Translations under genes and position numbers: made by a program | Shown: piece after piece, positions 5,115 to 64,000 of the stretch | How the letters are laid out: every line of letters begins with the position of its first letter | Numbering within the stretch: the stretch's first letter is position 1 | Notes under the pieces: generated by a model | The model's input: only the letters and a program-made list of their open reading frames with translations | Databases searched by the model: none | What the model was told of the DNA's origin: nothing | Source: Coraliomargarita sp. | GTDB taxonomy: Bacteria; Verrucomicrobiota; Verrucomicrobiia; Opitutales; Coraliomargaritaceae | Assembly (NCBI GenBank): GCA_965216325.1 | Contig: OZ244160.1 | Coordinates: forward strand, 2,144,001 to 2,208,000 | Reading direction: 5' to 3' | DNA: 64,000 nucleotides

Positions 5115-5116
5115 GT

Positions 5117-7178: not shown

Positions 7179-7356
7179 TACGATAGCTTCGCTAGGGCCG
7201 ATAAAGTAAAACCCTGAGTTAGATGACAATAGTTTAGTGAGTAGTTCTCGGATACTGGCGAATAGGGTGAATCATTCATCCGTAAGCTTTAGTCGTAAAG
7301 CGAAACGATTAGTCTTTTTGGACTAGTGGTGGCGCTAATGCCCGGTAGTAGGTAAG

Positions 7357-7387
7357 AGTGGTTAGTGGTTAGTGGTTAGTGGTTAGT
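7357..7387. repeat. Heptamer tandem repeat (AGTGGTT) x~4
   Basis: agtggttagtggttagtggttagtggttagt read directly. Confidence 0.85.
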
Positions 7388-7472
7388 TTTTAGGGATTAG
7401 GGGGAGTGGAATGATGAAACCTGAAACTTGAGAGCTGAATCGTTGCGAGATCGCCGAGGTGCGTCGTATCGC

Positions 7473-7531
7473 GTATCGCGTAAAACGCTGCGCGCACGCG
7501 ATTTGAATTGCTGGCGCACGATTGGGTTGCG
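7473..7531. repeat. Two-block dispersed repeat, copy 1 (31-bp hairpin block + 27-bp block)
   Basis: gtatcgcgtaaaacgctgcgcgcacgcgatt (7473-7503) and gaattgctggcgcacgattgggttgcg (7505-7531) recur exactly at 8982-9012 and 9037-9063. Confidence 0.85.
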
Positions 7532-7549
7532 GTGCGCCACGCGATCTGG

Positions 7550-7583
7550 GATTAGGATTACGAGTAGGATTAAGAATAAGAGT
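7550..7583. repeat. 34-bp hexamer-based repeat; inverted copy at 10563-10596
   Basis: gattaggattacgagtaggattaagaataagagt differs by one base from the reverse complement of 10563-10596. Confidence 0.8.
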
Positions 7584-7694
7584 TTTGGAGGGGCGCCACC
7601 CCGTCTCACAAGCGATCCCCCTGTTTCGCCTAGCTACGCAGGGCAGGCTGCCTCCATGGCAACTTCGACAGGCTCATTTCAGAAAGGATGTGAG

Positions 7695-18269: not shown

Positions 18270-19823
18270 ATGACTGACCAACTAGACGAATCCAGACACC
18301 CCTTTTTGAAGGGACTGAGCAAGCATCGTGGTGCGGTGCCTACCGTTATGGTGATCTTTGGCGCTTCCGGTGACTTGTGTGCCCGTAAGCTTGTGCCAGC
18401 GATCTTTAACCTCGGAGTGGACAACCTGCTGCCAGGTGACTTCCATCTGATCGGCTTCGGCCGTAAGCCGATCGAGGACGACACATTCCGCACGCTGATG
18501 GATGACGCGATCGGTGAGTTCTCCCGTCGACCACTGAATGCGGAGATCTGGGAGCGCGTGCGTGCCAACATGACCTACCACGCTGGTGGCTATGACGATC
18601 CGGCAACCTTTGTGGAGCTGGCGCAGCAGATCGACGCGATCGAAGCCGACCTGGGCCGTGAAGTGCAGCGCCTGTTTTACATTTCAACACCACCGAGTGT
18701 GTTTGAGCCAATCATTGCAAACCTTGGCAGTAGCGGCATGGCGAATGCGCACGTGGGCACTAAGCTTGCTTCGAAGGTAATTATTGAAAAGCCCTTTGGT
18801 CGCGACCTTGAGTCGGCGCGTCAGTTGAATGCGTCGATCAATAGTGTGTTTGAAGAGTCGCAGGTGTATCGCATCGACCACTATCTCGGAAAGGAGACGG
18901 TGCAGGACTTGTTGGTGCAGCGTTTTGCCAATTCGATTTTTGAGCCACTCTGGAATCGTGAGTATGTGGAGAATGTACAGATCACGGTGGCGGAAAGCCT
19001 CGGTGTCGGCACACGCGGTGGCTACTACGACACGAGTGGTGCCCTGCGTGATATGATTCAGAATCACACCATGCAGTTGGTCGCGCTGACTGCGATGGAG
19101 CCACCCGTCTCGCTGGACCCGGAGTCGATCCGCGATGAGAAGGTGAAGGTGTTGAAGGCGATTCAGCCACTGGAGCTGAAGCCGGAAGGGGGCGACGTCA
19201 TTCGTGGCCGCTATACCGGTGGCTTAGTCAACGGTGAGCCGGTTCCTGGCTACATGGAGGCCGAGGGCATTCCTGCGGACTCCAGCACCGAGACCTATGC
19301 TGCCTTACGTCTGTCGATTAACAATTGGCGCTGGAAGGGTGTGCCCTTCTACATTCGTTCCGGTAAGCGCATGGCGCGCCGTGCCAGTGAGATCGCGATC
19401 CAGTTCAAGCGTCCGCCGGGTATTCTGTTCTCGGAGGGCAGTAAGTTTGACGTGGCACCGAACACGATGGTGATCCGTATTCAGCCGGACGAAGGTGTGA
19501 CTTTGGTGATGAATTCCAAGGTGCCGGGGCTCGAAACCCGTACGCAGCCGGTGAAGATGCACTTCCGCTATGCGACGACCTTTGGCTCCAATACACCGGA
19601 GGCCTACGAGCGTCTGATCCTCGATGCGATGATCGGTGACAGCACCCTGTTCATTCGTGGTGACGAAACCGAAGCGTCCTGGAAGCTGGTGACACCGATT
19701 CTTGAATATTGGAAAGAGTGTGGTCAGCAAGGCCTTGAGGAGTATGCCGCGGGTTCCTGGGGACCACTTGCGAGCGAGCAGTTGCTTTGGGAGAAGGGCC
19801 ATCAGTGGCGCAAGTCGGGTTGA
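18270..19823 (+). CDS. zwf: Glucose-6-phosphate 1-dehydrogenase
   Basis: GASGDL, IEKPFG, YRIDHYLGKETVQ, RWKGVPFY.R.GKR, PEAYERLI. Confidence 0.97.
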   Translation: MTDQLDESRHPFLKGLSKHRGAVPTVMVIFGASGDLCARKLVPAIFNLGVDNLLPGDFHLIGFGRKPIEDDTFRTLMDDAIGEFSRRPLNAEIWERVRANMTYHAGGYDDPATFVELAQQIDAIEADLGREVQRLFYISTPPSVFEPIIANLGSSGMANAHVGTKLASKVIIEKPFGRDLESARQLNASINSVFEESQVYRIDHYLGKETVQDLLVQRFANSIFEPLWNREYVENVQITVAESLGVGTRGGYYDTSGALRDMIQNHTMQLVALTAMEPPVSLDPESIRDEKVKVLKAIQPLELKPEGGDVIRGRYTGGLVNGEPVPGYMEAEGIPADSSTETYAALRLSINNWRWKGVPFYIRSGKRMARRASEIAIQFKRPPGILFSEGSKFDVAPNTMVIRIQPDEGVTLVMNSKVPGLETRTQPVKMHFRYATTFGSNTPEAYERLILDAMIGDSTLFIRGDETEASWKLVTPILEYWKECGQQGLEEYAAGSWGPLASEQLLWEKGHQWRKSG

Positions 19824-19867
19824 ATTCGTGCGAAGGTGTGAATGTTTAAAAGTGCGAAGGTTGAAAA

Positions 19868-20851
19868 ATGGCTGAATTAATTGATGTGCTCCCCGGAGTG
19901 GAACTTCCCGTGCAGGAGGTAACCAAGCGCCTGAATACGATGTGGGAGGGGGATGCGACTCCAGAGTCACCGTCGGAGTTTCGCGCGTCGCAGATGAATG
20001 TGGTGCTGCACTTCGGTCTGGATGTGACCCCCGAAGAAGCCAAGGAGCGCTTTGATGCAGTGATCCGTTTTGCCCAGCGTTATCCGAGTCGTATCATCGT
20101 GTTGTGTCCGACACGCGAGGAAGACTGCGGGATGACGGCGAAGTTGTTTAGCCAGTGCTACATTGGTGAGACGCACCGCGAGATGTGCTGCTGTGAGGCC
20201 TTACTGTTGCGTTACAAATCGGAGGATTTTGGATACTTGGCCAATCAGGTGTCGATTTGGCTGGAAGGCGACCTGCCGACTTACCACTGGCTGAGCGGGG
20301 TGCCTGCATCGCGTATTGAGACTTACTACGACAACTTGTTGGTCGGCGTGCGTCGTATCGTGTTTGATAGTAGTGTTGAGCCTGAGGATTTGATGACGCT
20401 GAATTGGCCGCAGCCTGAGCGTGTGCACGATTTAGCTGCCGCGCGTTTGCTGCCCGTGCGTCAATCGCTGGGGCAGTTTCTGAGTGGGTATCCGATTGAA
20501 AGCCTGTGCAAAGGTCTGGAGTCCGTGTGTATTCACTATTGTGATACGATGTCGGGTGAGGCTCAGCGTCTGCTGGAGTGGATTAAGGGCTGTCTCTGTG
20601 ACTGTGATAAGTGCGAGGACTGTTCGGCTCTGAGTTCGAAGTTCTCGATTCAGAAGAAGTGCGATTCGGATGAGAATCCGTTCACAATTGAATGGACCTA
20701 CAGCGATGGCCGCTACCTGAAGTGGCGTAAGCTGAAGGATGGTTCGCGTGGGGAAATTGACGCGAATCTGGGTAAGGGCGAGGAATGTATCCCCACACGT
20801 ATCAAGCCGCTCGAGCCGGATCATGCGCTGGCTGAGGCCTTGTTCTTCTAA
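19868..20851 (+). CDS. opcA: G6PD assembly/activator protein OpcA
   Basis: Immediately downstream of zwf; RASQMN.V, PSRIIVL, CCE, DLP.Y.W, RRIVFDSS, DL…RL..RQ. Confidence 0.8.
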   Translation: MAELIDVLPGVELPVQEVTKRLNTMWEGDATPESPSEFRASQMNVVLHFGLDVTPEEAKERFDAVIRFAQRYPSRIIVLCPTREEDCGMTAKLFSQCYIGETHREMCCCEALLLRYKSEDFGYLANQVSIWLEGDLPTYHWLSGVPASRIETYYDNLLVGVRRIVFDSSVEPEDLMTLNWPQPERVHDLAAARLLPVRQSLGQFLSGYPIESLCKGLESVCIHYCDTMSGEAQRLLEWIKGCLCDCDKCEDCSALSSKFSIQKKCDSDENPFTIEWTYSDGRYLKWRKLKDGSRGEIDANLGKGEECIPTRIKPLEPDHALAEALFF

Positions 20852-46823: not shown

Positions 46824-48323
<1,500 letters not shown>

Positions 48324-50192: not shown

Positions 50193-50221
50193 AATGGTGG
50201 AGGTGGCGGGAGTCGAACCTT
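50193..50221 (-). mobile_element. att site (copy 1): 3' end of tmRNA (ssrA)
   Basis: Minus strand AAGGTTCGACTCCCGCCACCTCCACCATT gives a T-arm, acceptor strand and CCA with the Ala-type U70. An identical copy is at 54256-54284. Confidence 0.8.
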
Positions 50222-50390
50222 CGATCTGCGTGCTATAAGGCGTTTGTTGGTAGTGGTTTGAGTTTTTGAAGAGGCCTCGTGGTCACCTATAGGGACACCT
50301 GATTTTGGCGCGGTTGGGCACTTCTTGTCGTGGATTTGTTAGTTTTCTGAGGTGCTGACATTGTGACTTTTTATCAAATACTTCGCTGAT

Positions 50391-51239
50391 CTATTGTGCA
50401 GACTCTCCCAGAAGTGCATTAGAGATATCGACCATGTCCTGTCGTATCATGGTTCGACGGACTTGGATCTCTTTGCTCTCTGCTCGGGAAGGTTCGCCCA
50501 GCACGAAGTGTGCGGCACGCATCGCTACGGCGGAATTGTCGTCCTTGAAGTCATTGCGCAATGTATCCAGCGCATCTGGGCATGCGGGATTCTTCAGACG
50601 AATTTCTTCGGCAAATGCTGCAATCGCTGCCTCTGGCCCTTGGTCGTAGTGCTTAACCGTGTAAAGAATGTCAAAGGCGTCTTTGGGCTGCTGGCGGTAT
50701 TTGAAGGCGCGTAGCTTTAGCGCCAAATAGGGGCCCACTTCACAGACTCTGGCGGTGAGGCTTTGATTCGCCCCGTATAGGTCGGTCCCTTTCAAAGAAA
50801 TACTGCGCGCTGTTTCAAGGGCACGTTTGACTCCAGGCATCACGTTGGCCTTCACGTCGTCGACCATACGTGCGCCTTGTGTTGCTGTGCCATCTTCGAC
50901 AAGAAAGTCGATATACATGGTAAAGCCGCTGATTTCTTTCATGTAGCGTGCTTCGTTGTGTGCAGTTGCTTTAAAGCCTTGCCCTTGTAATTCGGAGGAG
51001 AGTGTTCCGTATTGGCCTGCGGATGCGCCGAGTGCGATCCCGAGGTCAACGTCGAGTGTAGCCGGGCGTGGAAGTTCGCCATCTCCTTCTGGGTGTTGGC
51101 AGATGCATATTGGCACCAAGCCGCCCAGAAGCACCAAATCATCGTGGTATCGGCGAAGAGTTGGCCAAATCGTTAAGAATGCAGGGAGCGATTGTGATGT
51201 CGCACGTGGATCGTATGCGCTGTAAGTGTCGTATTTCAT
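50391..51239 (-). CDS. AbiEii/MenT-like nucleotidyltransferase toxin (type IV TA)
   Basis: VLLGGLVP, T.DVDL (GG + DxD), LALKL.AF..R..PKDAFD; ATGA overlap with the upstream gene. Confidence 0.75.
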   Translation of the reverse strand: MKYDTYSAYDPRATSQSLPAFLTIWPTLRRYHDDLVLLGGLVPICICQHPEGDGELPRPATLDVDLGIALGASAGQYGTLSSELQGQGFKATAHNEARYMKEISGFTMYIDFLVEDGTATQGARMVDDVKANVMPGVKRALETARSISLKGTDLYGANQSLTARVCEVGPYLALKLRAFKYRQQPKDAFDILYTVKHYDQGPEAAIAAFAEEIRLKNPACPDALDTLRNDFKDDNSAVAMRAAHFVLGEPSRAESKEIQVRRTMIRQDMVDISNALLGESAQ

Positions 51240-52294
51240 GAACGGCAAAACCCTTCCCATTCTCGAAGCGCTTGGGCTGCGTCGGGGCCTCTGAGCCCTG
51301 TGTTTTGTAGATCGATGTAAATTTGAGCGTCCGATGCTAAGTTTAAATTTTCCGTGGGATGTTTTTCTAGAAATACACCCTCATCTTTAGGGACATGGAG
51401 CCAGACCTTGCCGCCTTCTTCGACTGGGCGTAGCCCTAATGACTTAAGTTCTTCAGAACTTGGTAATCTTTGCACATAAGCTGAGCATACTGCTGGTTCC
51501 GTGTAGGGGTGCCGTTCAAAGGCGGCAATCCATTGTGTGAAAGCAAGCGGCACATTCTCACTCTCAGACCATTCCTGCAGTGTGTCGGCGACCTTGGATA
51601 AATTGCCAATGGGCCCAGCGTAGTAATTAGTGCTACAGCGTTCTTGGAATTTATCCTCGGTGCTCCACGCATCAAGCAAACCATCGAAATCACTGATGCG
51701 ATATTCTCGTGCGCTTAGTTTCTCTAAATAGGACTGTGTGACTAGGTGCTGGACGAGTCGTGATACCATGCCTGAGCTGGCATGTGTGCGTTTAAGTAGT
51801 TCTGCCTGTGTCCAAACTTGATCCCTGTTGGTTAGGAGTGAACGCACGATCCGGCCACTTTTTCCGGTGAAAATGTTGCGTGGCTCTAGATGATGACTGA
51901 ACGTCCTCCCTGGGAGTGCGTGTCTGTCTACGAGTAATTCCTTGGCTCTGAGCCATGCCCGTCCATTTAGGTCGATACAGGAGAGTTGCTTCGCTTTACA
52001 AAACTGTAGGACTCGTTTGGTGAGGTTCGGGGCAACTAGCAGTGTTGCTATGGCATGCTGTCTTGTCGCTATGCGTTCTAATTCTGGGATGCTCGGCTTC
52101 AGTTTGAACTCCACTTGGTATTCAAGCCTTCTGCCATCTAGGAGCAATTGCACGCAACCATCGTCATGATCGTTCGCGTCTTGAAAATAGGTCCATTTGA
52201 GGTCTGGATCGGCGATGAGTAGCTCGCGAAAATGGTAAAGAAGCTCTTGTTCACTTCGAATATTTGAGTTCTTACTGGATTTTGCAATTTTCAA
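51236..52294 (-). CDS. AbiEi-family antitoxin (type IV TA)
   Basis: IDLNGRAWL, wHTH (RIVR.LL…WTQ.EL…S.G.VS…L), LLDAW, D.GVF, SDAQIYIDL…RG.DAA. TTG start is uncertain. Confidence 0.78.
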   Translation of the reverse strand: MKIAKSSKNSNIRSEQELLYHFRELLIADPDLKWTYFQDANDHDDGCVQLLLDGRRLEYQVEFKLKPSIPELERIATRQHAIATLLVAPNLTKRVLQFCKAKQLSCIDLNGRAWLRAKELLVDRHALPGRTFSHHLEPRNIFTGKSGRIVRSLLTNRDQVWTQAELLKRTHASSGMVSRLVQHLVTQSYLEKLSAREYRISDFDGLLDAWSTEDKFQERCSTNYYAGPIGNLSKVADTLQEWSESENVPLAFTQWIAAFERHPYTEPAVCSAYVQRLPSSEELKSLGLRPVEEGGKVWLHVPKDEGVFLEKHPTENLNLASDAQIYIDLQNTGLRGPDAAQALREWEGFCRS

Positions 52295-52427
52295 TATGCT
52301 GTGAATGTTGCTGATCTTAGTAAGAGGGTCAATCGCTTTATCGATACTTCAGTAGTCTCAGGATGGAATCCATCGAGGGGATGCGGATCGGGTGGCTTAC
52401 GAAGAACTTGCAGACTTGGGACAAGCT

Positions 52428-52928
52428 CTATGTAATAGAAGGCCAGCTGTTTTTGGGTATATTTCCAAATTCTAGACGTGAACCGTGCTCGGAAAAGCAA
52501 TTTGAATGGTCAAAGATGTCTTTTGCTGCGGATTCTACTTTATCAGGTGATTTACTTCTGACTCTGCCTGGGAATCCAAGGTAATTTTCAATATTTTTCA
52601 TTCTGAGAGTGTCGAGGTATTCTAGTCTTCCAAAATGCAAATCAAACAGTTCTAGAAGTATTTTCTTGGGGCACCGTGTGTCAGAAACAAGTATAAGCAA
52701 GCTTTCGATCTCAAGTCGATGTATCAATTGTGCGAGATTTAGAGATAGCAGGCCTCGTAGAGTTAGTGGTAAGATGATGGCATCGTAGTCTTCGTTGAGG
52801 ACTTTTTCAAACACCTCAAAATCACTCATTTGATTGACGTCGAAGTAATCTGCACTGATTCCCTCCGCTCTACTTAGCTTTCGGTGAGATATTCTGAAAG
52901 TTGCGTCGCCTAATAATAAAATATTCAT
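52428..52928 (-). CDS. Hypothetical protein with a degenerate receiver (REC)-like fold
   Basis: MNILLLGD…DYDAIILPLTLRGLLSLNLAQLIHRL…LILVS follows the REC pattern but has Pro where the phospho-Asp is expected. The ORF is open back to 53045. Confidence 0.45.
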   Translation of the reverse strand: MNILLLGDATFRISHRKLSRAEGISADYFDVNQMSDFEVFEKVLNEDYDAIILPLTLRGLLSLNLAQLIHRLEIESLLILVSDTRCPKKILLELFDLHFGRLEYLDTLRMKNIENYLGFPGRVRSKSPDKVESAAKDIFDHSNCFSEHGSRLEFGNIPKNSWPSIT

Positions 52929-53181
52929 TTTAGATATCCACGGAATATCTTCGGTTGTGGCTTCAGCCTGTAAGCGTGGAGCACGATTCATGTCCACAAG
53001 GCCGATCGTCGTTTTTCCCTCTGATAGTTCAGTCAAGTAAAGCAAGCTGCTGGCTTCGAGTGCTTTGATTCGCTCCCAAGGAACTGCAATTTGTAGATTC
53101 CCCGATCTGTGCGATGCTGAGTTGCGAATCGTTACTTTTCGAAGCGTTTCGTCCTTTAGTAAATAGCTGATGTTCCCCTTA

Positions 53182-54189
53182 TTATTTACACTGAAGCTTG
53201 GGTGGCGCCGGGTAATCGTCCAGGGGATACTTCTTGAGCCACTGGATCAGATTGGGCTGCATCTTGATCGTGCGCTTCTCGTTCACCTTCGAGGCCTCGG
53301 GCTCGATCAGGATGACTTCGGTATCAAAGCGGAAATCCTTCGCCTTCAGCTTTTTGATTTCGCCATCCTTCCAGTCTGGGCGGATGCCAGCGAACAAGGT
53401 CAACGCGTAGTAGGGGACCATGCAGCCGGGCTTGCCCCAATAGCTGCCGTCCTTATTTTGTGGGCCTTGGTAAGTTTCGAGCCACTTCATGAAGTCGGCG
53501 GTCTCCTGGGCGCTGAGCGTGTCGGCGGTGCCGCGCGCTTGCTTCACTCGGAACTTGGGCACCTCGAGGATGATGTCTGACGCCACATACTTCTTGGAAA
53601 GGCAGAATTTGAAAAAGGTGCTTATGTAGCCGCGTCGATTGTTCCAGGTCTTTAGCGAAGGCACCGCCTTGGAACGGCCGAGCGGAGCGTCCAGATACTC
53701 CCGAATTTCATCTGGACGGATCTCTCCCACGATGCGGTCGGCGAAGTAGCCCTTGAGCTTCTTCATTTCGATGCCGATCGCGCGAACCTGTCGGCTGGAG
53801 ATCAGACCGCGCTCAAAGTCCTTTGTGCGGTCCTCGGTATATTCGTCGACAGCCGCCTCGACGGTCATGGTCTCGGCAGCTTCCTTGTAGTGCTCGAGGA
53901 AATATTTGACCGCGAAGGTGAGTGACTTCGTCGATTTCGAATTTTTCAGGAGACCGGTCGCCGCGATTGCGTCACGGTTCTGATCATGGGTGAGGGTGGT
54001 CCAGACGGTCTGACCTTCGGACTCGCCATTGAGGTGCTCGATTTCGAGCTTCTGACGATACGTAACCGCATCCGCGCGCGTCTTGAAATTTTTGCGGATG
54101 GACTCGCCATCCAGTGTCCCCGAAACGCGAAAAACCTTCGCGCCCGAGGGGTTGGAAAATGGGGTGATTTTAAATCGGTGTTTGGACAT
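53182..54189 (-). pseudogene. Tyrosine recombinase/integrase, C-terminally truncated
   Basis: Arm-binding N-terminus (FRVSG.L.G…RKNFKTR..A), SAM-like domain, LFAGIRP (catalytic Arg) and ASK, but no H-x-x-R or catalytic Tyr. Starts about 67 bp from an att repeat. Confidence 0.8.
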
Positions 54190-54255
54190 GGCTTTTAATT
54201 ATTTGCAGATTCAAATCTGCAAATTTAGGCCATGCCCGCATAAACACTAGGCTAA

Positions 54256-54284
54256 AATGGTGGAGGTGGCGGGAGTCGAACCTT
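54256..54284 (-). mobile_element. att site (copy 2): 3' end of tmRNA; junction between two tandem islands
   Basis: aatggtggaggtggcgggagtcgaacctt is identical to 50193-50221; no full tRNA or tmRNA body is adjacent. Confidence 0.8.
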
Positions 54285-54904: not shown

Positions 54905-57475
54905 ATGCTTGCCGTGTGCACTAAACAAATGTCAGATTTTTCTTCTATGTTCAAAATTTCCGTTCCAAGATTAATCACCGTCGGTTTTCTTTTCCCTTCA
55001 TTCCTTAGCAGTTTGGGCGCGCAGGCACTGCTTATTGATGGAGGGACTGCCTCTGATGGCGCTAGTCTTTACAAGGATTTTGAAGTCGAAATTCCTGTAT
55101 CTGCTAATCCACTGAGTGTTGCTTCTGTGTCTGCGGATTTTAATGCCACGGATGGCAATGAAGGACTTTCTTCTGAGGAGATCAGGACTCGATTCATTGA
55201 ATGGGGTGATTCAGGAAAAAAAGCTGCATACATATTTTTGGTGGATGTCAGTGATGTTGAGGATACCTCTGAGCTCAGAACTGGCACCAAAACTGTTGAG
55301 GTTGGGATTTTTAAAAGCGATAAGGAGGTCGAGGTTCAAGAACAGCACATTGTTCCTGTTGATCGTGACGACATTGTTAGGGAATATGCGCGAATGCTTT
55401 CTGGGGCAGTCAGAACTTACAAGGATCCTGAATTTGCTTTGTATACCTACAGCGATTCTTTGGATAGGGATGTGAAGTTGGGTCAGTCACCAATCGATTT
55501 CAATGACGTGGCTAGGGGCTTGTTGAGTCCAAACACCGAAAGCAACTCAGAGAAAGCAGTTCTCTATCAAGCAATTTATGAGAGTCTGCAAGATCTAGCT
55601 GACCACAGTGCTGACCGAAAAGCACTCATAGTCATGGGGAGCGGCAGGACAGACGATGAGGCTGCTTTTGATGAACGTAAAGTCGTCGACCTGGCTGTTG
55701 CGTCGGGCATATCAATTTATAGTCTGGGCGGAAGCAGCGGAGAGCAGAATCGTGTATTCTTGAACTTTTTGAAGAATCTATCCGGTGGAACGAATGGGCT
55801 TTATCAAGAGGTGTCTAGTGATGGTGTCCAGAATATGGATTCCGATTTTATTCAGACCATTTTTGATAATATTGAAAATGGGGGCGAACTGCGAGTAACA
55901 CTACCAGCGAAACTTCAAGGTCGCGGTGATATCGAGATCGAGTTAACGCTTAGCGATGAAAGCGTTGTTCAAGTTTCTAGGCCTATAGAGCTAGTGGAAG
56001 CGACTGACTTTGCTTCCGCAGTGAACTATTCAGTTTTACTAGATGAGCAAAATGAAGCTAGCCAGACCTCTGAGCTGGAATCCAAAAATTTATCTACTTT
56101 CCCTGTCAGAATTGATCCGGATTCGAGAACATATGTCTTAGATTTATCGTTTAATAGGGCCGTTGATTTGGTCGATGTTAGCTTGGATGAATCCAGTAAT
56201 GTTGATTTCAAGTATACGCCATTTGAATCAAGTCGTGCCGATTCTGCATACGTCTATCTCTTAGATACGAGCGATACGGCTGACGAAGAAGACAAAGGCT
56301 TACACCTTGCTGTTTTCAAGTCAGTCCTCTTGCGGTTAATTGAGCAATCTAATGAGAAGCAACTTGCTGGAGTTGGAACCCTCGGGGATTCATTGAATAT
56401 GCTCTTGGCGCTCGATAAATATAACAAATCTGAGCTTACCAATAAGGTTCTCTCAATGGAGGAAGGAAGCTCGTCATATGGCGTCTCATCGAACTTCTAC
56501 GACGGTGCCTATCATGCAATTGATCAACTAGCTGAAGCTGACAATGAGACCCGCAAGATTCTAGTGGTCTTTTCAACAGGCCGAACCGAAGTAGGTAGTG
56601 GAAAGTATAGCATTCAAGCTTTATCTGACTATGCTAAAGAGGCAGGAGTGATTGTCCGAATTGTCGGGTTGAACGTAAAAAATCCGGATGCGTTACTCAA
56701 GTTTGAGCCCTTCAGCGCTAATGGCACTTTCGATGCAGTTACATTTGAAGAAGATGAGAACGTAGCCCTTCTGCCCTCATCCTTCTTTGAAAACTTCTAT
56801 GGCATCTTTGAAAATGGAGGACAGATTGAATTTAATCTTCCCCCAAGTAAGCGTATGACTGAGCAAGTTAATATGGTATTGACCTTCTCGGATGATGTTT
56901 CCTTTGAGTTCTCTTACCTAGTTGACCTTGGGGAGACTACACAAATTCAAAGTTCTGATAATTCTGATGATGTGGATTCTTTAGAAGATGGCAGCGAGAA
57001 GTCATTTCCTCTTATTGTGATACTGGTTGGTGCCGCAGTAGTCTGCTCTGTTATTATTGTTGTTGTAATTATTGCTCGTCGAAAGACACGGAATGTTGAG
57101 GTAACTGATCGATTGGTTGTAACATCTAATGATGAAGTCTCAGATTTACCACCTCCGCCTGATTTGAGTGGTTTTGATGGCGGTTCTATTTTTGGCTGGA
57201 TAGAAATGGTTGATTCTACGGGCCGTAAGCATCCGATCAATTTGCCTGCTTTTCGGATTGGTAGGAATGAGTCGAATGATTTAGTATTCCAAAATGACTC
57301 TGTATCGGGGTTTCATGCGGAAATTGTGGCGTCTCGTGATGGTAGTATCTCAATATCTGACTTAGATTCATCTAATAAAGTTTACGTCAATGGTCTGAAA
57401 GTCGACGTCGCAACTTTGAAAGACGGTGACCTCGTTGACTTAGGCGAAGTTAAGTTCCGATTTATCTCCAAGTAA
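54905..57475 (+). CDS. Exported tandem-vWA protein with TM and cytoplasmic FHA domain
   Basis: Signal peptide (start may be 54929 or 54947); two vWA-like repeats (YIFLVDVSD…KALIVMGSGR; YVYLLDTSD…KILVVFSTGR); TM; FHA (IGR…SVSGFHA…DLDSSN.V.VNG…L.DGD). Confidence 0.8.
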   Translation: MLAVCTKQMSDFSSMFKISVPRLITVGFLFPSFLSSLGAQALLIDGGTASDGASLYKDFEVEIPVSANPLSVASVSADFNATDGNEGLSSEEIRTRFIEWGDSGKKAAYIFLVDVSDVEDTSELRTGTKTVEVGIFKSDKEVEVQEQHIVPVDRDDIVREYARMLSGAVRTYKDPEFALYTYSDSLDRDVKLGQSPIDFNDVARGLLSPNTESNSEKAVLYQAIYESLQDLADHSADRKALIVMGSGRTDDEAAFDERKVVDLAVASGISIYSLGGSSGEQNRVFLNFLKNLSGGTNGLYQEVSSDGVQNMDSDFIQTIFDNIENGGELRVTLPAKLQGRGDIEIELTLSDESVVQVSRPIELVEATDFASAVNYSVLLDEQNEASQTSELESKNLSTFPVRIDPDSRTYVLDLSFNRAVDLVDVSLDESSNVDFKYTPFESSRADSAYVYLLDTSDTADEEDKGLHLAVFKSVLLRLIEQSNEKQLAGVGTLGDSLNMLLALDKYNKSELTNKVLSMEEGSSSYGVSSNFYDGAYHAIDQLAEADNETRKILVVFSTGRTEVGSGKYSIQALSDYAKEAGVIVRIVGLNVKNPDALLKFEPFSANGTFDAVTFEEDENVALLPSSFFENFYGIFENGGQIEFNLPPSKRMTEQVNMVLTFSDDVSFEFSYLVDLGETTQIQSSDNSDDVDSLEDGSEKSFPLIVILVGAAVVCSVIIVVVIIARRKTRNVEVTDRLVVTSNDEVSDLPPPPDLSGFDGGSIFGWIEMVDSTGRKHPINLPAFRIGRNESNDLVFQNDSVSGFHAEIVASRDGSISISDLDSSNKVYVNGLKVDVATLKDGDLVDLGEVKFRFISK

Positions 57476-57502
57476 GACCTGCTTCAATACGCTGAATATA
57501 AC

Positions 57503-57778
57503 ATGAAAATTTACACAATAGGGCGCTCGTCGGATGCAGACATTTGCTTGGGGCAGTTAAGTGAGGGAGGATCCGTTAGTGATTTTCATGCAGATTTGGT
57601 GCTTTCCGCGGAAGTAAATGATGTATTGCTAGTTGATCGAAATAGCAGCAACGGCACCTATGTTTGGTGCGATAACAATTGGGAGAGAGTTTCTCAGCTG
57701 AAGGTTGCTCGGGATTCAACCGTTTCCTTTGGCAAATGCAGAATTAAACTCAGCGAACTTATATCGAAAACCAATTAA
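57503..57778 (+). CDS. Stand-alone FHA domain protein
   Basis: TIGRSS.ADI…SVS.FHA.L…D.NSSNGT.V. Confidence 0.88.
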   Translation: MKIYTIGRSSDADICLGQLSEGGSVSDFHADLVLSAEVNDVLLVDRNSSNGTYVWCDNNWERVSQLKVARDSTVSFGKCRIKLSELISKTN

Positions 57779-57799
57779 GAGTAAATAGGAGATAGCAAA

Positions 57800-58384
57800 A
57801 TGACTGATGACGGGAAGACACGTATTATAAAGCGAGGCGATCAAGGACCTCCTCCCTTTGGGGGCGGTGTTCCAACGCGGGCCGGAGGGACTACGAAGGT
57901 TGATTCTCCGTCGGGTGCACCAGCACCTACCAGAAAAGTTGAATCGCCGCATTCTGTGCCAGCTAAGGCAGCTGATTCTAATAAAACAAAATTAGTTCGT
58001 CCACGGTCGGCTAATGATGCATCTGATGAGCAAGAGTGGAATCCAGTCGTAGGTTGGGTTGTGGTTGTTGACGGGCCTGGGAAGGGTAATAGTTTAAACG
58101 TCGGTATAGGGTATAATCACCTAGGTAGAGGTGATAATCACAGAATAAATTTAAACTTTGGCGATGAGTCTATTTCTCGCGAAGCCCAGGCCACGATTAC
58201 TTTTGATCAGCAGAGTGGGAAATTCTTTGTGATGCCATCTGGTCAGGGCGTGAATATGGTCTACCATAATAGCAATCCGCTTCTACAGTATCAGGAATTA
58301 GAGAAGGACGACGAGATTAAGGTAGGGGCGACAATATTGCGTTTCTGCCCATTTTGTTCTGCTGATTTCAAATGGGATGCCTAA
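57800..58384 (+). CDS. FHA domain protein with disordered Thr/Pro-rich N-terminus
   Basis: PVVGWVVVVDGPGKG, LGRG…D.SISR, N.VY.N…L…D.I.VG.T.LRF.PFC..DF.W. Confidence 0.85.
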   Translation: MTDDGKTRIIKRGDQGPPPFGGGVPTRAGGTTKVDSPSGAPAPTRKVESPHSVPAKAADSNKTKLVRPRSANDASDEQEWNPVVGWVVVVDGPGKGNSLNVGIGYNHLGRGDNHRINLNFGDESISREAQATITFDQQSGKFFVMPSGQGVNMVYHNSNPLLQYQELEKDDEIKVGATILRFCPFCSADFKWDA

Positions 58385-59134
58385 ATGATTCCTGAGTGGA
58401 ATTTTGCTGGTAGGCAAATTTTAGGCTGTCGAGAGGCCCAAGAAGATGCTTATGCATTTATGGGGTTGGGCAGCTCCAAAGCTTCAGAATTTGACCCTCT
58501 TTTTTTTGTCCTCGCAGATGGTATGGGTGGTTACACTGCTGGCGATGTCGCTAGTGGCTTAGCGACTGAAGAATTTTGCAAGCAAGCGTCTATCTCTAAA
58601 AAGGATTGGCGTCGTCTGTTTGAAGAAGGTTTGGCGGCTGCAAATGAGAAAATTGAGGCCTTGAATAAAAATGTTGGTGAGTCCGGTTGCACTGTGGTTT
58701 CTTCCATAGTTCATGGAGGTAAGCTTTTTTGGGTAAGTGTAGGTGATTCTGCGCTTTATTTATTTCGAGGGGGTGAGCTGATCCGGCTAAACCAAGATCA
58801 TTCACTGCGCTCGGAATGCATGCAAAGACTAGAAAAAGGCGAAATTTCAGCAGAAGAGGCGCAACATAATAGTAGCCTACTGTGCTCTGCGATTACGGGC
58901 GACGAGATTGAGCAAGTCGATTTGAATGTCGATGGACGAAATCTTCATGCTGGGGATATTATAATTGCAGCTACTGATGGCCTTGAGACGATCAATCATA
59001 ATGAAATCGAAAGGAAGCTTGGGAGAATAAGGCATCTTTCTGCATCTTCGATTGCGAGCGCGCTGCTCAACTCGGTAGAAAACGAGCGAAAAGATCAGCA
59101 AGATAACACCACGATCTTGTGCATTAAGCTATGA
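58385..59134 (+). CDS. PP2C/PPM-family Ser/Thr protein phosphatase
   Basis: R..QEDA, LADGMGG, VGDS, DHS, ATDGL, DNTT. Confidence 0.92.
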   Translation: MIPEWNFAGRQILGCREAQEDAYAFMGLGSSKASEFDPLFFVLADGMGGYTAGDVASGLATEEFCKQASISKKDWRRLFEEGLAAANEKIEALNKNVGESGCTVVSSIVHGGKLFWVSVGDSALYLFRGGELIRLNQDHSLRSECMQRLEKGEISAEEAQHNSSLLCSAITGDEIEQVDLNVDGRNLHAGDIIIAATDGLETINHNEIERKLGRIRHLSASSIASALLNSVENERKDQQDNTTILCIKL

Positions 59135-59175
59135 GCTGGTTTTCATGATACACAGCGATATATAGGTTTGGTTAA

Positions 59176-59910
59176 GTGGAGATATACACAAGTCAGCATC
59201 TAGGTGATCGGGAAGAGCAACAAGATCGTGTTTTCTGCGAAAGTGACTCGCGAGGCACTATTTTGTTGGTTGCTGATGGTGTCGGCGGAATGTCATTTGG
59301 CGAGCAAGCAGCTCAGGCCGTATCTGATACTGCTTTCAAGTTCTGGCAGGATTGGGAGCCAAACCAAGTTGATGCGTTACAGCTTTTGCAGAGTATCGCC
59401 GAAGCTTCTCATCTGGCTATCCAATCTTTAGGCAGCGCCCCGAAGTCAAACGCTCGATCAACTTTAGTTTGCGCGGCCATTGTGGATAGCCGCTGTGCTT
59501 GGCTTTCATGTGGCGATTCGCGACTCTACCATCTTAATGGTCAGGGTTCACTATGGAGGACTGTTGACCATTCCGTGGTTCAACTATTGGTCGACCGTGG
59601 GGTTGTTGCTGAGGAGGATATGGGGACTCATCCAGATCAAGGAAAGCTATATCAATCACTAGGTGGAGATGCAGATCCCGAACCTGATTCTGGTTGGCTA
59701 GATTTGAAGCAGAATGATACTGTCATACTGTCCAGCGATGGCTTTTGGGAACATATTTCGAAAAATGATATTCAATGTATGGCAAGTATGCCACATTCCT
59801 CTCTGGCTAGCCGGGTGGATAAGTTGGTCGAGGACTGCTACAATGGAGCTAATGGCTCTAGTGACAACATCAGCTTAGTCGTGGCTCGGCAGTCTGATAT
59901 CCGTCCGTAA
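59176..59910 (+). CDS. Second PP2C/PPM-family Ser/Thr protein phosphatase
   Basis: R..QQDR, VADGVGG, CGDSR, DHS, SSDGFW, DNIS; GTG start. Confidence 0.92.
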   Translation: MEIYTSQHLGDREEQQDRVFCESDSRGTILLVADGVGGMSFGEQAAQAVSDTAFKFWQDWEPNQVDALQLLQSIAEASHLAIQSLGSAPKSNARSTLVCAAIVDSRCAWLSCGDSRLYHLNGQGSLWRTVDHSVVQLLVDRGVVAEEDMGTHPDQGKLYQSLGGDADPEPDSGWLDLKQNDTVILSSDGFWEHISKNDIQCMASMPHSSLASRVDKLVEDCYNGANGSSDNISLVVARQSDIRP

Positions 59911-60037
59911 ACTCTTTTCGGCATCAGTGTAGAGTAGCTACTGGATGCGGTTAGTATTTATTCTGTTTTTGTCTTTATTTACCCCTGTAATTTTGTCTGT
60001 TTGAGGGTGATATCGCACACTAAATTCTAAACCGAAA

Positions 60038-61567
60038 ATGATCATGGATAGACGCCCAATTTTTCTTTATACGCGGATGACTGCTATCCTGTTGGGCACT
60101 CTGCTGCTGCCGACGTTTCTTCATGCAAAGATGGATCCGGATACACAGGCTGAAGTCGGAAACAGCGTTTTCCGAATTTTAAAATATTCGCAAGTCTACA
60201 GAACGGACATATCCAAGTTCCTTAAAACAGAAAACATTAATGACATAAAGGTGGCATCACATCCTTTCACTGCTAGTGTTGGAATGGGCACTGGGTTTGC
60301 AGTTGCAAAAAGCGATGACGGCAAGGGTGTGTTTATCATGACTAATCATCATGTTATTGACCATGATCCAATCGTTCCGGTGAAACGGGGCGATGATATG
60401 GAAGTGCTGTTTTACAAAAAACGATTTATGAGCCAGTATGCAGATTACTTCCTGGTGGTTCGCCTGAGCCCAGAAGGAAGGGGAATCGAGGTTTATGCTG
60501 GAGAAGTTATCCAAAGCAGTGAGAGATATGATTTTGCACTAATTTATATCGAAGAAGCTGATGTCTCAATTCTTCCATTTACTGATAAAGAGCTGATTGC
60601 TGGGGACTCGGTAACTGCAATCGGTTACCCTGGTATCGCAATGAATCGTAACAAGACTTTTGATTTCATAGACAAGTATGTTGCTAGAGTCGGTAAGGAC
60701 TTTGATGAAAGTGGTATACTGCCTCACAGAGTCGACCTCGTATCTGCTGTTGGTGATGAGATAAACGATTTTACGCCGAATTTTCAGTTTGGTGATGTTG
60801 AGAAGATTGGACTTTATTCCCCAAGCGCGGACTCAGAGTCTATGAAGGCGGTCTTCCACAGCGCTGGTATCGATAAGGGGAATTCTGGCGGGCCCATATT
60901 AAACAACTTTGGTGAAGTTGTTGCTCAAAGCACATGGGGTAAGTCTACTAGTTCTGGTGGGGATCAAAAGGTTTCTCAGCATGTTGAGGTCATTACGTCT
61001 TGGTTAGATAAATACTCGATATCCTATTCCGTGGGACGCTCAGTAGGGAGCTCTACAGTTCTTTATGTTGTGATTGGCTTTGTAGTCGTTTTGTGCGTAT
61101 TTGCCGCCGGATTTTTTGGGATCACACTGTTCAAAGTGAAGTCCGAAAATAGCTTACAAGGTTCTAATGCGGGGCCCAACAACAAGAGAGCGGCTGTAGG
61201 CAAAAATCCAGCGAAGACAAACCGAGTTAGGGGCGGCACATTACGCTTGATTTTGAAGGATAGGCATAGTGGCAGTGCAGTTAAGCAAATCGATGTAGAT
61301 CGAGCGAAATTTGATGGTAAGGGGCGCTATCTTGTTTTAGGGCGGGATTCAGCATTCTCCGATGTCGAAATTGCGAATAGTTCACTGTCTCGACAACACA
61401 TAGGTATCGTTTGGAGCCGCGATGGTGAAATACTTATTGAAGATCGTAATTCAACCAATGGAACAAAAGTTCGTGGTAAGTCTTTGGCGCCCTTTGAGGC
61501 TATTCCGCTGCCAGATCTTGTTGAATTTCAAATCGGTGAACTATTGGGGACTGCCCAAGTTATTTAG
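60038..61567 (+). CDS. Exported trypsin-like serine protease with TM and cytoplasmic FHA domain
   Basis: Signal peptide; GTGF, TNHHV (His), DFAL (Asp), GYPG, GNSGGP (Ser); TM; FHA (LGR…SLSRQH…D.NSTNGT). Confidence 0.88.
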   Translation: MIMDRRPIFLYTRMTAILLGTLLLPTFLHAKMDPDTQAEVGNSVFRILKYSQVYRTDISKFLKTENINDIKVASHPFTASVGMGTGFAVAKSDDGKGVFIMTNHHVIDHDPIVPVKRGDDMEVLFYKKRFMSQYADYFLVVRLSPEGRGIEVYAGEVIQSSERYDFALIYIEEADVSILPFTDKELIAGDSVTAIGYPGIAMNRNKTFDFIDKYVARVGKDFDESGILPHRVDLVSAVGDEINDFTPNFQFGDVEKIGLYSPSADSESMKAVFHSAGIDKGNSGGPILNNFGEVVAQSTWGKSTSSGGDQKVSQHVEVITSWLDKYSISYSVGRSVGSSTVLYVVIGFVVVLCVFAAGFFGITLFKVKSENSLQGSNAGPNNKRAAVGKNPAKTNRVRGGTLRLILKDRHSGSAVKQIDVDRAKFDGKGRYLVLGRDSAFSDVEIANSSLSRQHIGIVWSRDGEILIEDRNSTNGTKVRGKSLAPFEAIPLPDLVEFQIGELLGTAQVI

Positions 61568-61575
61568 GCTGATCG

Positions 61576-63516
61576 ATGGAAGATTCAGAAGGCATATACG
61601 GGTTCGCTCTCCCGAATGGGACAGTCATAGACAAATACAGAATAACTAAGGTTCTTGGACAGGGAGGCTTCGGTATTACATACCTTGCTATTGATGAATC
61701 TTTGGGAAAGCGGGTCGCAATCAAAGAGTGTTTCCCATCAGATGTTAGTTCACGTCCTGATGGAGTCACAGTGGCTCCACTCTCAGAAAAAAAGAAGAGT
61801 GACTTTGATTGGGCACTAAAGCGTTTTGTAGAAGAGGCACAGATACTCGCCAAGTTCGAGCATCCTAATATTGTGTCGGTAACAGATGTATTCCACTCGT
61901 CAGGCACAGCTTATATGGCGACAGCCTTCATAAACGGCATGAGTTTTGATGCGTGGCTTGCTGAATCTGGGGGGCGAGTCCCAGAACAATTACTCATTCA
62001 AGTATTTGTTCGGATTCTAAGTGGCTTGAAGCTGGTTCACTCGGAAGAGGTCCTTCACCGCGATATTAAGCCAGAGAACATATACATTGATACGCATGGA
62101 CAGCCCGTGTTGCTAGATTTCGGAAGTGCTCGACAGGCAGTTACAAATAAAAGCATGCCTGTCACATCAGTAGTTAGTCCTGGATACGCCCCCTTTGAAC
62201 AGTATTTTGAAGACGGAAATCAAGGGCCTTGGACTGATCTATATGCTTTAGGTGCAGTTATGTATCATGCTGTTACTGGAACTGCTCCACCAGAAGCAAC
62301 TCGACGTGAGAGAAATGACTCTTACCAGCCTTGTGCAGAAACTCATGCGGGAAGTTATTCTCGGGAATTTTTAGAGACCGTGGATTCCTTGTTGAGCCAG
62401 CAGGAAAAGGGGCGTCCGCAGTCTGTGGACGAACTTTATCAGTCTTGGTCAGGTTCAGCATTTTGGTCTCCTTACATTGGCGGTGTGACGATTGTTAACC
62501 CTGTTGTGTCCGAAAGCTCTCGGGGCACTTCTGTTGACGACAGCCGAAATGAACGCGACCCCGTTGCTATAAAGCGCTTCTTGATTCCCTTTATCGTGTT
62601 AGTGTCACTTATTTTAGTTTCGCTGTTAGCATGGTTCATGTTTGCCTCGGACGAAGGCCAAAATCCCGAAATACATACGGCTGATAGTCCGCGTAACGAT
62701 GTGCGAAGTGTTCCGACCGAAGTTAATACTAGATCATCACCATCCGAAGTGTCGGCACCTCGAGATGCTGTTGAGGAAGGATCAGTCGCCGAGAGAAACC
62801 CCATTCGGGAGATTTTTGCGGACGGTAATATCTCGGCATTTGAATTTACCCAATATCGTAGAGAGATTTTCGAGTTGGCTGATGGTGGAGACGTTCCTGC
62901 CATGCGAGCGATTTACAAGCATTTGGAAGCTTACGAGCCTGAGGTTGCCCTGAAATATGCAGAAATGGCGGCTGAGGCAGGAGATTCTGAGATGGCACTG
63001 CTTGCGGGGCAGAGACATGCCAAATCTAATCGTAATTACTCTAGGGCACTTTCCTTGTGGAAACTAATCAACGAAAACTCAGAGTATTATTCTGAGGCCG
63101 CTACTTTAATAGGTGAGTGCTATTTTAAAGGTCTTGGCGTGCGGAAAAATTCAAGTGCTGCGGTAGAATTCTTTGAAAAAGCAAGTAAAGGAGGCAGTGC
63201 TGAAGCATTCGTAAACCTTGGCATTATTTACTACAAGGGGGACGGGGTTCGGGGTGATTACGCGAAGGCTTATAATAGTTTTAGGGAGGCTGAAGATCTC
63301 GGCGCTGCAAGCGCATTGTTCAATCTAGGCGTGCTTTACATGAATGGACATGGTGTTGCTCAAAATATCAGGACTGGCGCTGATTATTTCCGTAGAGGAG
63401 CTATACAAGGCAATCAGGCCGCCATAAATGCTTACGCAAAATGTCTTGCTAACGGTCATGGAGTCCCTCAGAACATCCAAGAGTCTGAAAGATGGCTCCA
63501 AAAGCTAACCAATTAA
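61576..63516 (+). CDS. Hanks-type Ser/Thr kinase with TM and Sel1-like repeats
   Basis: GQGGFGITY, AIKE, HRDIKPEN, DFG, GYAPFEQ, D.YALG; TM; Sel1 repeats (NLG..Y..G.GV..D…A). Confidence 0.93.
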   Translation: MEDSEGIYGFALPNGTVIDKYRITKVLGQGGFGITYLAIDESLGKRVAIKECFPSDVSSRPDGVTVAPLSEKKKSDFDWALKRFVEEAQILAKFEHPNIVSVTDVFHSSGTAYMATAFINGMSFDAWLAESGGRVPEQLLIQVFVRILSGLKLVHSEEVLHRDIKPENIYIDTHGQPVLLDFGSARQAVTNKSMPVTSVVSPGYAPFEQYFEDGNQGPWTDLYALGAVMYHAVTGTAPPEATRRERNDSYQPCAETHAGSYSREFLETVDSLLSQQEKGRPQSVDELYQSWSGSAFWSPYIGGVTIVNPVVSESSRGTSVDDSRNERDPVAIKRFLIPFIVLVSLILVSLLAWFMFASDEGQNPEIHTADSPRNDVRSVPTEVNTRSSPSEVSAPRDAVEEGSVAERNPIREIFADGNISAFEFTQYRREIFELADGGDVPAMRAIYKHLEAYEPEVALKYAEMAAEAGDSEMALLAGQRHAKSNRNYSRALSLWKLINENSEYYSEAATLIGECYFKGLGVRKNSSAAVEFFEKASKGGSAEAFVNLGIIYYKGDGVRGDYAKAYNSFREAEDLGAASALFNLGVLYMNGHGVAQNIRTGADYFRRGAIQGNQAAINAYAKCLANGHGVPQNIQESERWLQKLTN

Positions 63517-63571
63517 TGGCCTAATTCTACAATCTCAAAACTACTAATTACTAGCCTTGCAATCCTGCAAA

Positions 63572-64000
63572 ATGAAAGCATCAAAAAACTCAATCGTCCC
63601 GATTTTTATAACTGGTTCTCTACTCGCATCGATGACTTTACAGACTGGTTGTAATACAACCGAGGCAGGTGGCACCGCAGGAGGGGCGGCTATTGGTGGG
63701 TTGTTGGGCCAGGCTATTGGTGGAGACACTGAGAGTACGGTGATAGGTGCCGCTATTGGAGGTTTGATTGGTAATGTTGCTGCACGATATTACGTTGCCA
63801 ATCAAGAGCAAAAGCAAGTGGCCGAAGCAAATGCTAGAGCTGCGGTTTTGCAATATCAACAAGAGCAGGAGGAGCTGAAGCTAGAAGCTGAAGCTGACCC
63901 TAGCGTGGAATACGTTGAGCAAGAGCTGCCACGATATATTGCTGTTGAAACAGCTGCACCTGAAGATGCTCAGCTAGCTGAAGGGGCAAAGCAGCAAGTG
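63572..64000 (+). CDS. Glycine-zipper lipoprotein; runs off the right edge
   Basis: Manual translation: MKASKNSIVPIFITGSLLASMTLQTGC NTTEAGGTAGGAAIGGLLGQAIGGDTESTVIGAAIGGLIG…; open to the window end. Confidence 0.8.
   Translation, partial: MKASKNSIVPIFITGSLLASMTLQTGCNTTEAGGTAGGAAIGGLLGQAIGGDTESTVIGAAIGGLIGNVAARYYVANQEQKQVAEANARAAVLQYQQEQEELKLEAEADPSVEYVEQELPRYIAVETAAPEDAQLAEGAKQQV

Follow-up and report, generated by a model that had tools for sequence, protein, structure and literature searches.

Signalling through Hanks-type kinases, PP2C phosphatases and FHA domains in Gram-negative bacteria is understood mainly from the pathway that governs type VI secretion systems (T6SS). In this pathway the FHA protein Fha1 operates together with the kinase PpkA, which itself carries a vWA domain, and with the PP2C phosphatase PppA (PMC1262709); PpkA is switched on by a complex of lipoprotein and periplasmic proteins after membrane damage (PMC13713981), Fha binds phosphothreonine (pThr) of TssL (PMC3953482), and the pathway is triggered by envelope damage (PMC13713981, PMC3953482). 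Other reports describe the small FHA protein OdhI, whose N-terminal Thr is phosphorylated by PknG (PMC2784874), the ArnA/ArnB complex of an FHA and a vWA protein, which is tuned by phosphorylation and has dedicated kinases and a phosphatase (PMC6509490, PMC12852372), and the Deinococcus operon DRA0331-DRA0334, which encodes a vWA protein, a kinase, an FHA protein and an FHA-PP2C protein, the FHA protein and the phosphatase acting antagonistically on kinases (10.64898/2026.01.23.701218). We analysed a stretch of 64,000 nt from the verrucomicrobial genome of Coraliomargarita sp. (assembly GCA_965216325.1, contig OZ244160.1, positions 2,144,001 to 2,208,000; hereafter the window), and report that its positions 54905-64000 encode an operon of kinase, PP2C, FHA, vWA and protease proteins, which is carried on an island at the tmRNA gene (ssrA) and whose gene set recurs across bacterial phyla.

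The operon consists of eight open reading frames (ORFs), all on the + strand and separated by gaps of 27, 21, 0, 41, 127, 8 and 40 nt, in agreement with a first-pass annotation made from the sequence alone, which had described at least eight closely spaced, co-oriented genes. It encodes one writer (a kinase), two erasers (PP2C phosphatases) and four readers (FHA proteins), all with intact motifs; this composition, proposed in the same annotation, was recovered with Pfam and, for one reader (fha3), with its orthologues and an AlphaFold2 (AF2) model. The conserved heart of the set is a GarA/OdhI-like adaptor, a PP2C phosphatase encoded directly downstream of it, and a membrane receptor kinase. 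The accompanying genes encode single-pass membrane proteins with a vWA domain or a protease outside and an FHA tail in the cytoplasm, and the set has been co-inherited across phyla.

In its general layout the operon resembles the T6SS pathway, with which it shares a membrane-bound Hanks kinase with a periplasmic sensor part and a PP2C eraser, here present twice. Further likenesses are an FHA reader, which in the T6SS nucleates assembly, a lipoprotein encoded nearby, which in the T6SS pathway of TagQRST, PpkA, PppA and Fha1 in Pseudomonas and Agrobacterium is located in the outer membrane, and a vWA domain on the periplasmic side, which is there part of PpkA (PMC1262709). Unlike that pathway, the locus is found without a T6SS, its vWA domain is duplicated and resides on a separate FHA-tailed protein, it has four FHA proteins and two phosphatases, and its FHA-tailed periplasmic protease is without a counterpart. 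Co-inherited vWA, PP2C and kinase genes are shared with TerY-P systems, in which, according to PMC11090510, the vWA protein is separate, a zinc ribbon or OB fold is fused to the kinase, and the genes are mobile, some stand-alone versions being anti-phage. The vWA modules of the window differ from these in being extracytoplasmic, in tandem, flanked by a signal peptide on one side and a membrane helix on the other, and fused to an FHA domain; the C-terminus of the kinase is a membrane helix followed by Sel1 repeats, and FHA proteins and a protease are added. Membership in TerY-P was rejected, as the vWA part is not a separate protein and the kinase lacks a zinc ribbon or OB fold, and so was membership in the MoxR-vWA ternary conflict systems, which according to PMC7159879 require an AAA+ MoxR protein, whereas no match to an AAA+ or MoxR family was found among the operon or island ORFs. 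The combination of vWA, kinase, FHA and PP2C genes in one operon is also shared with Deinococcus DRA0331-DRA0334, a likeness in gene content as described; the abstract of that report mentions no membrane-tethered FHA readers and no protease.

The adaptor is encoded by gene 3, which we call fha3 (57800-58384, + strand, 194 aa). Its Pro/Thr-rich tail (aa 1-80), in which Thr63 forms part of the motif K-T-K-L-V, precedes an FHA domain (aa 83-184). The Pfam FHA match is marginal (0.0083), but the orthologues match Pfam FHA and the AF2 model adopts the FHA fold, with residues 1-80 disordered and modelled at low confidence (pLDDT 54-68). When this model was compared with known structures using Foldseek, OdhI and GarA were the top matches (TM-score 0.84-0.87, root mean square deviation 1.5-1.8 Å), and the FHA domain of FhaA was also among the matches. 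In an alignment of 60 fha3 sequences (A3) T63 is conserved in at least 90%, and R110, S126 and N152 are conserved as well, all three being kept in the window protein. Of 82 family tails, 64 contain the motif T[RK][ILVM], whereas 200 shuffles yielded 11.6 on average and 21 at most; in 51 tails its last occurrence lies 20-29 aa before the FHA core. Its commonest form is E-K-T-R-L-V-G-G-R-R, and the window has N-K-T-K-L-V-R-P-R. The hydrophobic residue at position +3 from Thr63 would fit common FHA preferences.

With its FHA domain preceded by a disordered tail that contains a conserved Thr, fha3 shares the layout of GarA/OdhI and of the DgcB FHA tail, its best structural matches, and we predict from sequence and model that the tail is phosphorylated. 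It differs from GarA/OdhI in its motif, K-T-[RK]-L-V, where the actinobacterial proteins have ETTS, and in its genomic partners, which are membrane proteins and not enzymes of the tricarboxylic acid cycle. The NCBIfam OdhI equivalog model (NF041660) did not match fha3, and gave sub-threshold matches only with genes 1 and 2. Gene 2, fha2 (57503-57778, + strand, 91 aa), encodes a bare FHA domain (Pfam FHA 4.1e-11).

The start of gene 4 (PP2Ca; 58385-59134, + strand, 249 aa; Pfam PP2C 3.5e-10) abuts the stop of fha3, and its metal-binding Asp residues are invariant in the alignment of this family (A4). Complex prediction for PP2Ca with fha3 (aa 55-194) gave a score of 0.00. Gene 5 (PP2Cb; 59176-59910, + strand, 244 aa; Pfam PP2C_2 5.7e-12) belongs to a distinct orthologous group, as its orthologue on a related metagenome contig described below (L074) matches it at 1e-61 and PP2Ca at 2e-10. 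The PP2C motifs DG[MV]GG, GDS, [ST]DG and DN are present in the translations of both phosphatases. The kinase, gene 7 (61576-63516, + strand, 646 aa), is a Hanks-type Ser/Thr kinase (Pkinase 2.1e-39) with VAIK, HRD and DFG in its translation, followed by a membrane helix and periplasmic Sel1 repeats (5e-26).

Gene 1 (54905-57475, + strand, 856 aa) encodes a protein that starts with a signal peptide and exposes two vWA modules outside the cytoplasm, each with a beta-sandwich behind it; a membrane helix (approximately aa 700-729) then leads to an FHA domain in the cytoplasm (aa 764-855; Pfam 6.1e-16). The Pfam VWA family did not match this protein, and the NCBIfam VWA model matched it below threshold (3.4e-9). 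An exhaustive HMMER search with the ectodomain alone (aa 1-720, without the FHA domain, E up to 1e-3) returned 143 proteins, one of which (P0033; 33% identity, 1.8e-65) is related over the full length and emerged only in this search, a word-indexed search having found no full-length relative; the other matches cover query positions 150-370 or 405-660. Among 12 sampled matches, 11 have a C-terminal FHA domain and 10 a Pfam VWA-type domain. A hidden Markov model (HMM) built from 100 ectodomains matches gene 1 twice, at aa 70-367 (2.7e-43) and aa 406-683 (5.7e-32), and the AF2 model (mean pLDDT 76.6) contains two alpha/beta modules, each with its beta-sandwich, a helix at 703-729 and the FHA domain. 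The best PDB match of this model in Foldseek is the tandem-vWA mussel protein PTMP1 (4.7e-15), followed by the inter-alpha-inhibitor heavy chain, ArnB (2e-9) and integrin I domains; the FHA part matches EmbR, GarA and OdhI. The tandem vWA architecture initially proposed thus stands as two modules, and requires one correction: while the family consensus retains D-x-S, T and D of the metal-binding site (MIDAS), the site is degenerate in both modules of the window, where the T and D positions are occupied by A and S in module 1 and by S and T in module 2. The pairing of FHA with vWA, and the structural match of the vWA part to ArnB, are shared with the ArnA-ArnB module of Sulfolobus, which represses motility. 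The Arn module is archaeal and soluble, its FHA and vWA proteins are separate and it is without a protease, whereas here FHA and vWA are joined in one membrane-spanning chain with the vWA part outside.

Gene 6 (60038-61567, + strand, 509 aa) encodes a signal or anchor segment, a periplasmic trypsin-like protease of the HtrA type (Trypsin_2 3.2e-17), a membrane helix and a cytoplasmic FHA domain (2e-11). Its catalytic triad (H103, D163, S281) and the Arg, Ser and Asn of its FHA domain are invariant in an alignment of 14 sequences (A1). Like HtrA and DegS, it has a trypsin fold with intact triad that is tethered to the inner membrane on the periplasmic side, and it weakly matches DegP and DegS models. 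Unlike those proteases it has no match to a PDZ domain (43 bits for TIGR02037, whose cut-off is 416), and the anchor comes after the protease, on its C-terminal side, and leads on into the cytoplasmic FHA domain, which would place the source of regulatory input inside the cell. The best relatives in databases are about 25% identical, and 26 of the 30 proteins returned for gene 6, its own protein counted, have the same combination of Trypsin_2 and FHA. The topology of genes 1 and 6, which had been described as two single-pass FHA readers with an outside vWA part or protease, is upheld by Pfam, the translations, the family HMM and AF2. Both translations begin with a signal-like segment and contain a single hydrophobic helix further on, with basic residues behind it, and in the kinase basic residues precede the membrane helix and acidic residues follow it. 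By the positive-inside rule, these charges place the vWA modules, the protease and the Sel1 repeats outward and the FHA and kinase domains in the cytoplasm.

In order to find whether this gene set occurs elsewhere, we examined related loci in several collections. The closest relative of gene 1 led to a metagenome contig of 60% GC (L074) that carries seven of the eight genes in the order vWAx2-FHA / fha2 / fha3 / PP2Ca / kinase-FHA / kinase / PP2Cb / protease-FHA. Best matches of reciprocal type pair every one of them with its counterpart in the window, at 4e-25 (fha2) to 1e-107, and the two PP2C paralogues remain distinct. Two loci (L103 and L098) have the same gene order as the window, and the conservation of gene order on which the first-pass annotation had made its proposal depend is thus found elsewhere. 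Word-based contig searches found no close relatives of the protease-FHA gene, and an alignment-based scan caught the generic protease motif GNSGGP; the 37 loci it returned (L004-L040), 32 of which have an ORF related to the trypsin part and none a relative of the FHA, PP2C or kinase proteins, were discarded. A protease HMM search across 401 genomes of the class gave DegP-type housekeeping matches in 399 of them, and we followed the top three non-self genomes (G253, G388 and G067). In G253 the order is X-FHA / fha3 / PP2C / protease-FHA / kinase, accompanied by genes for outer-membrane barrels. The set in G388 reads FHA-ABC transporter / protease-FHA / kinase-FGE-sulfatase, and a divergently oriented group there comprises fha3 / PP2C / OmpA-type genes.

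With the adaptor alignment (A2) as marker, 521 relatives were found among 573 pattern-matching stretches of a species-genome collection spanning many phyla. The gene set is present in Proteobacteria, Verrucomicrobiota (including Akkermansia), Latescibacterota, Acidobacteriota, Gemmatimonadota, Bacteroidota-like Rhodothermales, Planctomycetota and Actinomycetota. Components were counted in the best 79 of the 521 adaptor loci, with flanks of up to 10 kb on each side. PP2Ca is found beside fha3 in 77 of the 79 loci, a kinase in 71, a small FHA gene in 48, and a protease-FHA gene, matched in both its parts by the A1 HMM, in 55, with at least two copies in 18. PP2Cb (20 loci), vWA-FHA (17) and Sel1 (10) are less frequent. 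Pfam searches of samples identified the other large FHA proteins as second trypsin-FHA copies, thermolysin-M4-FHA and RDD-FHA proteins, and an ABC transporter was found too. Proteins of 769-787 aa with a thermolysin-type Peptidase_M4_C domain and a C-terminal FHA domain (L109 4304-6610, - strand; L092 16397-18757, + strand) indicate that a second class of protease uses the same tail. The outside domains of the kinases vary and include Sel1, FGE-sulfatase, MORN, PEGA, and CarboxypepD_reg with Flg_new. The vWA-FHA gene is replaced in one genome of the window's class by an ABC transporter with two N-terminal FHA stretches (L072 11398-13713, - strand), a build that we take to resemble mycobacterial Rv1747.

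With the exception of a single unrelated automatic name, members of the family in a collection of 5.8 billion proteins are labelled only 'hypothetical' or 'FHA domain-containing'. The earlier statement that the gene set is not a named system is borne out, as PADLOC gave no system match and a literature search limited to main texts turned up general or tangential papers and no description of the architecture. What this locus adds is its setting, a mobile island at ssrA, together with a vWA ectodomain present in duplicate and a Thr motif conserved in the adaptor.

The operon opens a genomic island of 19.3 kb, island A, which extends from window position 54283 to the window-equivalent position 73579. 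The island had been predicted from a lower GC content and a putative tmRNA-type attachment (att) site just before the operon, and both are confirmed: GC is 0.42-0.48 across the operon compared with 0.51-0.58 in the core (window 8-52 kb), and a 27-nt sequence identical to the 3' end of the tmRNA gene occurs at 54256-54282, the left bound of island A, and again at 50193-50219 (two exact copies in the window, compared with none in 100 shuffles). No tRNA or tmRNA gene lies in the window itself. Reading beyond position 64000 located ssrA on the - strand at 19582-19928 of a longer stretch, L001, whose coordinates equal window coordinates minus 54000, 19.3 kb downstream of the att copy; the last 27 nt of the gene are at L001 19580-19606. 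An integrase of 434 aa adjoins ssrA (phrog_1 1.1e-18) and an excisionase gene is found near it (TIGR01764 2.2e-9), both outside the window, and no known machine is encoded downstream of the operon. A direct repeat of the tmRNA 3' end and a tyrosine integrase beside ssrA identify an integrative island that targets ssrA, as the proposal of a mobile island had anticipated. In a public metagenome run (X5) genes 1-5, 7 and 8 recur at about 95% identity, the protease gene being the least well covered; the contig diverges from the window upstream of 54837, 68 nt before gene 1, which indicates that the operon there lies in a different flank. Reads of three runs with the same species label (X6, X7 and X10) matched nowhere on the stretch, core included.

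Taken together, we favour the reading, held with confidence about evenly divided, that the operon is a horizontally acquired copy, on an ssrA island, of a widespread and uncharacterised pThr signalling module, and that it works as an envelope or surface switch in the following manner. The periplasmic Sel1 domain of the kinase would sense an envelope or surface cue, upon which the kinase would autophosphorylate and phosphorylate Thr63 of the adaptor. The vWA protein and the protease would bind the pThr marks through their FHA tails, as would fha2. Such docking could cluster the two membrane proteins and thereby either activate the HtrA-type protease, which lacks PDZ domains, or place it beside a ligand held by the vWA modules, and the two PP2C phosphatases would reset the switch. 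The role is likely to be surveillance and remodelling of the envelope or cell surface; a role in conflict or defence is possible. In a broader version, which we propose only tentatively and think less probable, the locus would exemplify an undescribed trans-envelope switch of many phyla, mobile in this case, in which receptor kinases mark a GarA-like adaptor and FHA tails switch or position outside proteases and vWA binders, giving inside-out control of periplasmic proteolysis.

Several observations weigh against the favoured reading. The signalling direction may be outside-in or inside-out. The window adaptor has Gln in place of the near-invariant His130 of its family, and by a stricter, earlier count the Thr motif is anchored to the start codon, at the very N-terminus, in only 23 of 82 tails. 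Both vWA-FHA and protease-FHA occur together in only 13 of the 79 loci, so that a partnership of vWA and protease is not general, and 14 loci have no large FHA membrane protein in the stretch examined. Since two MIDAS positions are lost in each vWA module of the window, ligand binding may be atypical. Finally, the host genome contains elsewhere five other Pkinase matches (four above the family cut-off), three PP2C matches and two FHA matches, which makes cross-talk possible and leaves the initial description of the operon as self-contained only plausible.

If this broader version is true, packaging on a mobile ssrA island would make of the module a transferable device for envelope surveillance or conflict. 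The locus wires the logic of kinase, PP2C and FHA to other outputs, namely FHA-tailed periplasmic proteases and vWA proteins, and if the FHA tails control the outside protease this would be a new coupling of cytoplasmic state to extracytoplasmic proteolysis. The reading makes a sharp prediction, the phosphorylation of one near-invariant Thr on a small adaptor, and the compact, mobile version of eight genes is suited to transfer into a laboratory host.

The alternative that survives best, although we consider it unlikely, is anti-phage or anti-competitor defence, in which an attack would be sensed, the kinase cascade would fire, and the protease or the vWA proteins would damage or seal the envelope, in a manner akin to TerY-P. 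The AT-rich, integrase-bearing island at ssrA agrees with this, as do a search of 40 relatives in which no protease-FHA was found, the copy in another sample with a different upstream flank, and TerY-P-like triads of vWA, PP2C and kinase, which PMC11090510, citing Gao 2020, reports to defend against phage. Kinase sensors (Sel1, FGE-sulfatase, MORN and PEGA) and FHA-tailed outside domains vary around a fixed core, a pattern that PMC7159879 gives as a criterion for conflict systems. PP2Cb also matches the PADLOC candidate family PDC-M21C (6.8e-12), but no PADLOC defence system is represented by two or more operon components: gene 1 has no match at E up to 5, no PADLOC model besides PDC-M21C matches the PP2C or vWA proteins, and the other operon proteins match nothing or generic kinase and protease models that belong to different systems. 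Moreover, the usual effectors that act in the cytoplasm, such as a nuclease or an NTPase, are missing, and the enzymatic output faces the periplasm. Most related genomes have no integrase like that of island A near the locus (with this integrase as the sole query), and in Latescibacterota the flank is syntenic, with tRNA-Thr, which suggests a resident chromosomal gene set.

Still less probable is a role in the control of cell wall synthesis or division, like that of the actinobacterial operon fhaA-fhaB-pstP-rodA-pbpA-pknA-pknB, in which FHA adaptors and PP2C would tune envelope biosynthesis with the protease as an accessory. The two operons share a grammar of two FHA genes, PP2C and kinases, and besides the Foldseek match of fha3 to FhaA there are weak matches to the NCBIfam FhaB/FipA model, by fha3 (3.4e-4) and by the part of the protease comprising membrane helix and FHA domain (1.8e-5). 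These NCBIfam matches are, however, all far under their cut-offs, and the operon encodes neither RodA nor a penicillin-binding protein (PbpA) nor a PASTA kinase, the PknB_PASTA model (NF033483) scoring 136.5 bits against a cut-off of 450. A housekeeping role does not fit a module that is accessory and island-borne and whose protease-FHA gene was not found in 40 related genomes. That the operon is an orphaned threonine phosphorylation arm of a T6SS is very improbable and largely refuted for this genome, as, although kinase, PP2C, FHA protein and lipoprotein make up the parts list of that pathway, and kinases of related loci carry FGE-sulfatase domains, presumably of the TagR type, the TagH (TIGR03354; 20.6 bits, 3.3e-4) and TagQ (NF041250; 24 bits, 2.1e-5) matches are far from their cut-offs of 120.25 and 300 bits, no TssC (PF05943), Hcp (PF05638) or TssK (PF05936) match was found in the 99.98%-complete genome less 24 kb, and no T6SS family of Pfam or NCBIfam was found among the island ORFs, consistent with the first-pass annotation, which had found no T6SS structural gene in the window.

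The last gene of the operon, gene 8 (63557-64000, continuing to the window-equivalent position 64126, + strand, 189 aa), encodes a glycine-zipper lipoprotein, as glycine-zipper Pfam matches confirm, and is probably co-transcribed with the others. Although it had been listed with the operon, gene 8 is not a conserved member of the module: a relative occurs in only 1 of the 79 related loci, and none was found in the L074 stretch examined. Scans for promoters (16 sites, compared with 16.9 in shuffles) and terminators (9 compared with 9.4) gave no excess.

The remainder of island A contains 13 other ORFs, integrase and excisionase counted, without a relative in 84 related loci, which assigns them to cargo or island functions outside the module. 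Most have no match in Pfam, NCBIfam, PADLOC or PHROGs, the exceptions being a few weak sub-threshold Pfam matches and one ORF matching phrog_16022. The latter (L001 16443-17120, window-equivalent 70443-71120; phrog_16022 4.6e-10) also weakly matches an S-adenosylmethionine lyase family of Pfam (3.2e-4) and could be an anti-restriction gene of phage type. On its other side island A is adjoined by a neighbour of 4.0 kb, island B (50220-54255), which lies outside the signalling module and contains a truncated integrase (53182-54189, - strand, 335 aa; phrog_1 4.9e-14), 85.8% identical over 330 aa to the integrase of island A, and three ORFs without family match. The two islands share a DNA repeat of 190 nt that is 74% identical. 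From the 27-nt repeats and the positions of integrase and excisionase genes, the order of this tandem array is ssrA, island A, att copy, island B and the final att copy at 50193-50219, its outer edge.

Further from the operon, two ORFs with FHA matches (G000:C1:2238356-2238535 and 2284645-2284761) lie 20 and 67 kb beyond ssrA, and a single frame of 596 aa (G000:C1:2771334-2772629) matches both PP2C_2 and Pkinase, which suggests a fusion of phosphatase and kinase. At the other end of the window, positions 1-8000 have a GC content of 0.46-0.49, compared with 0.51-0.58 in mid-window, and may be another foreign segment. A repeat of at least 100 letters, in which short words occur more than 12 times, is found at 47716-47864, inside or near the ORF at 46824-48323.

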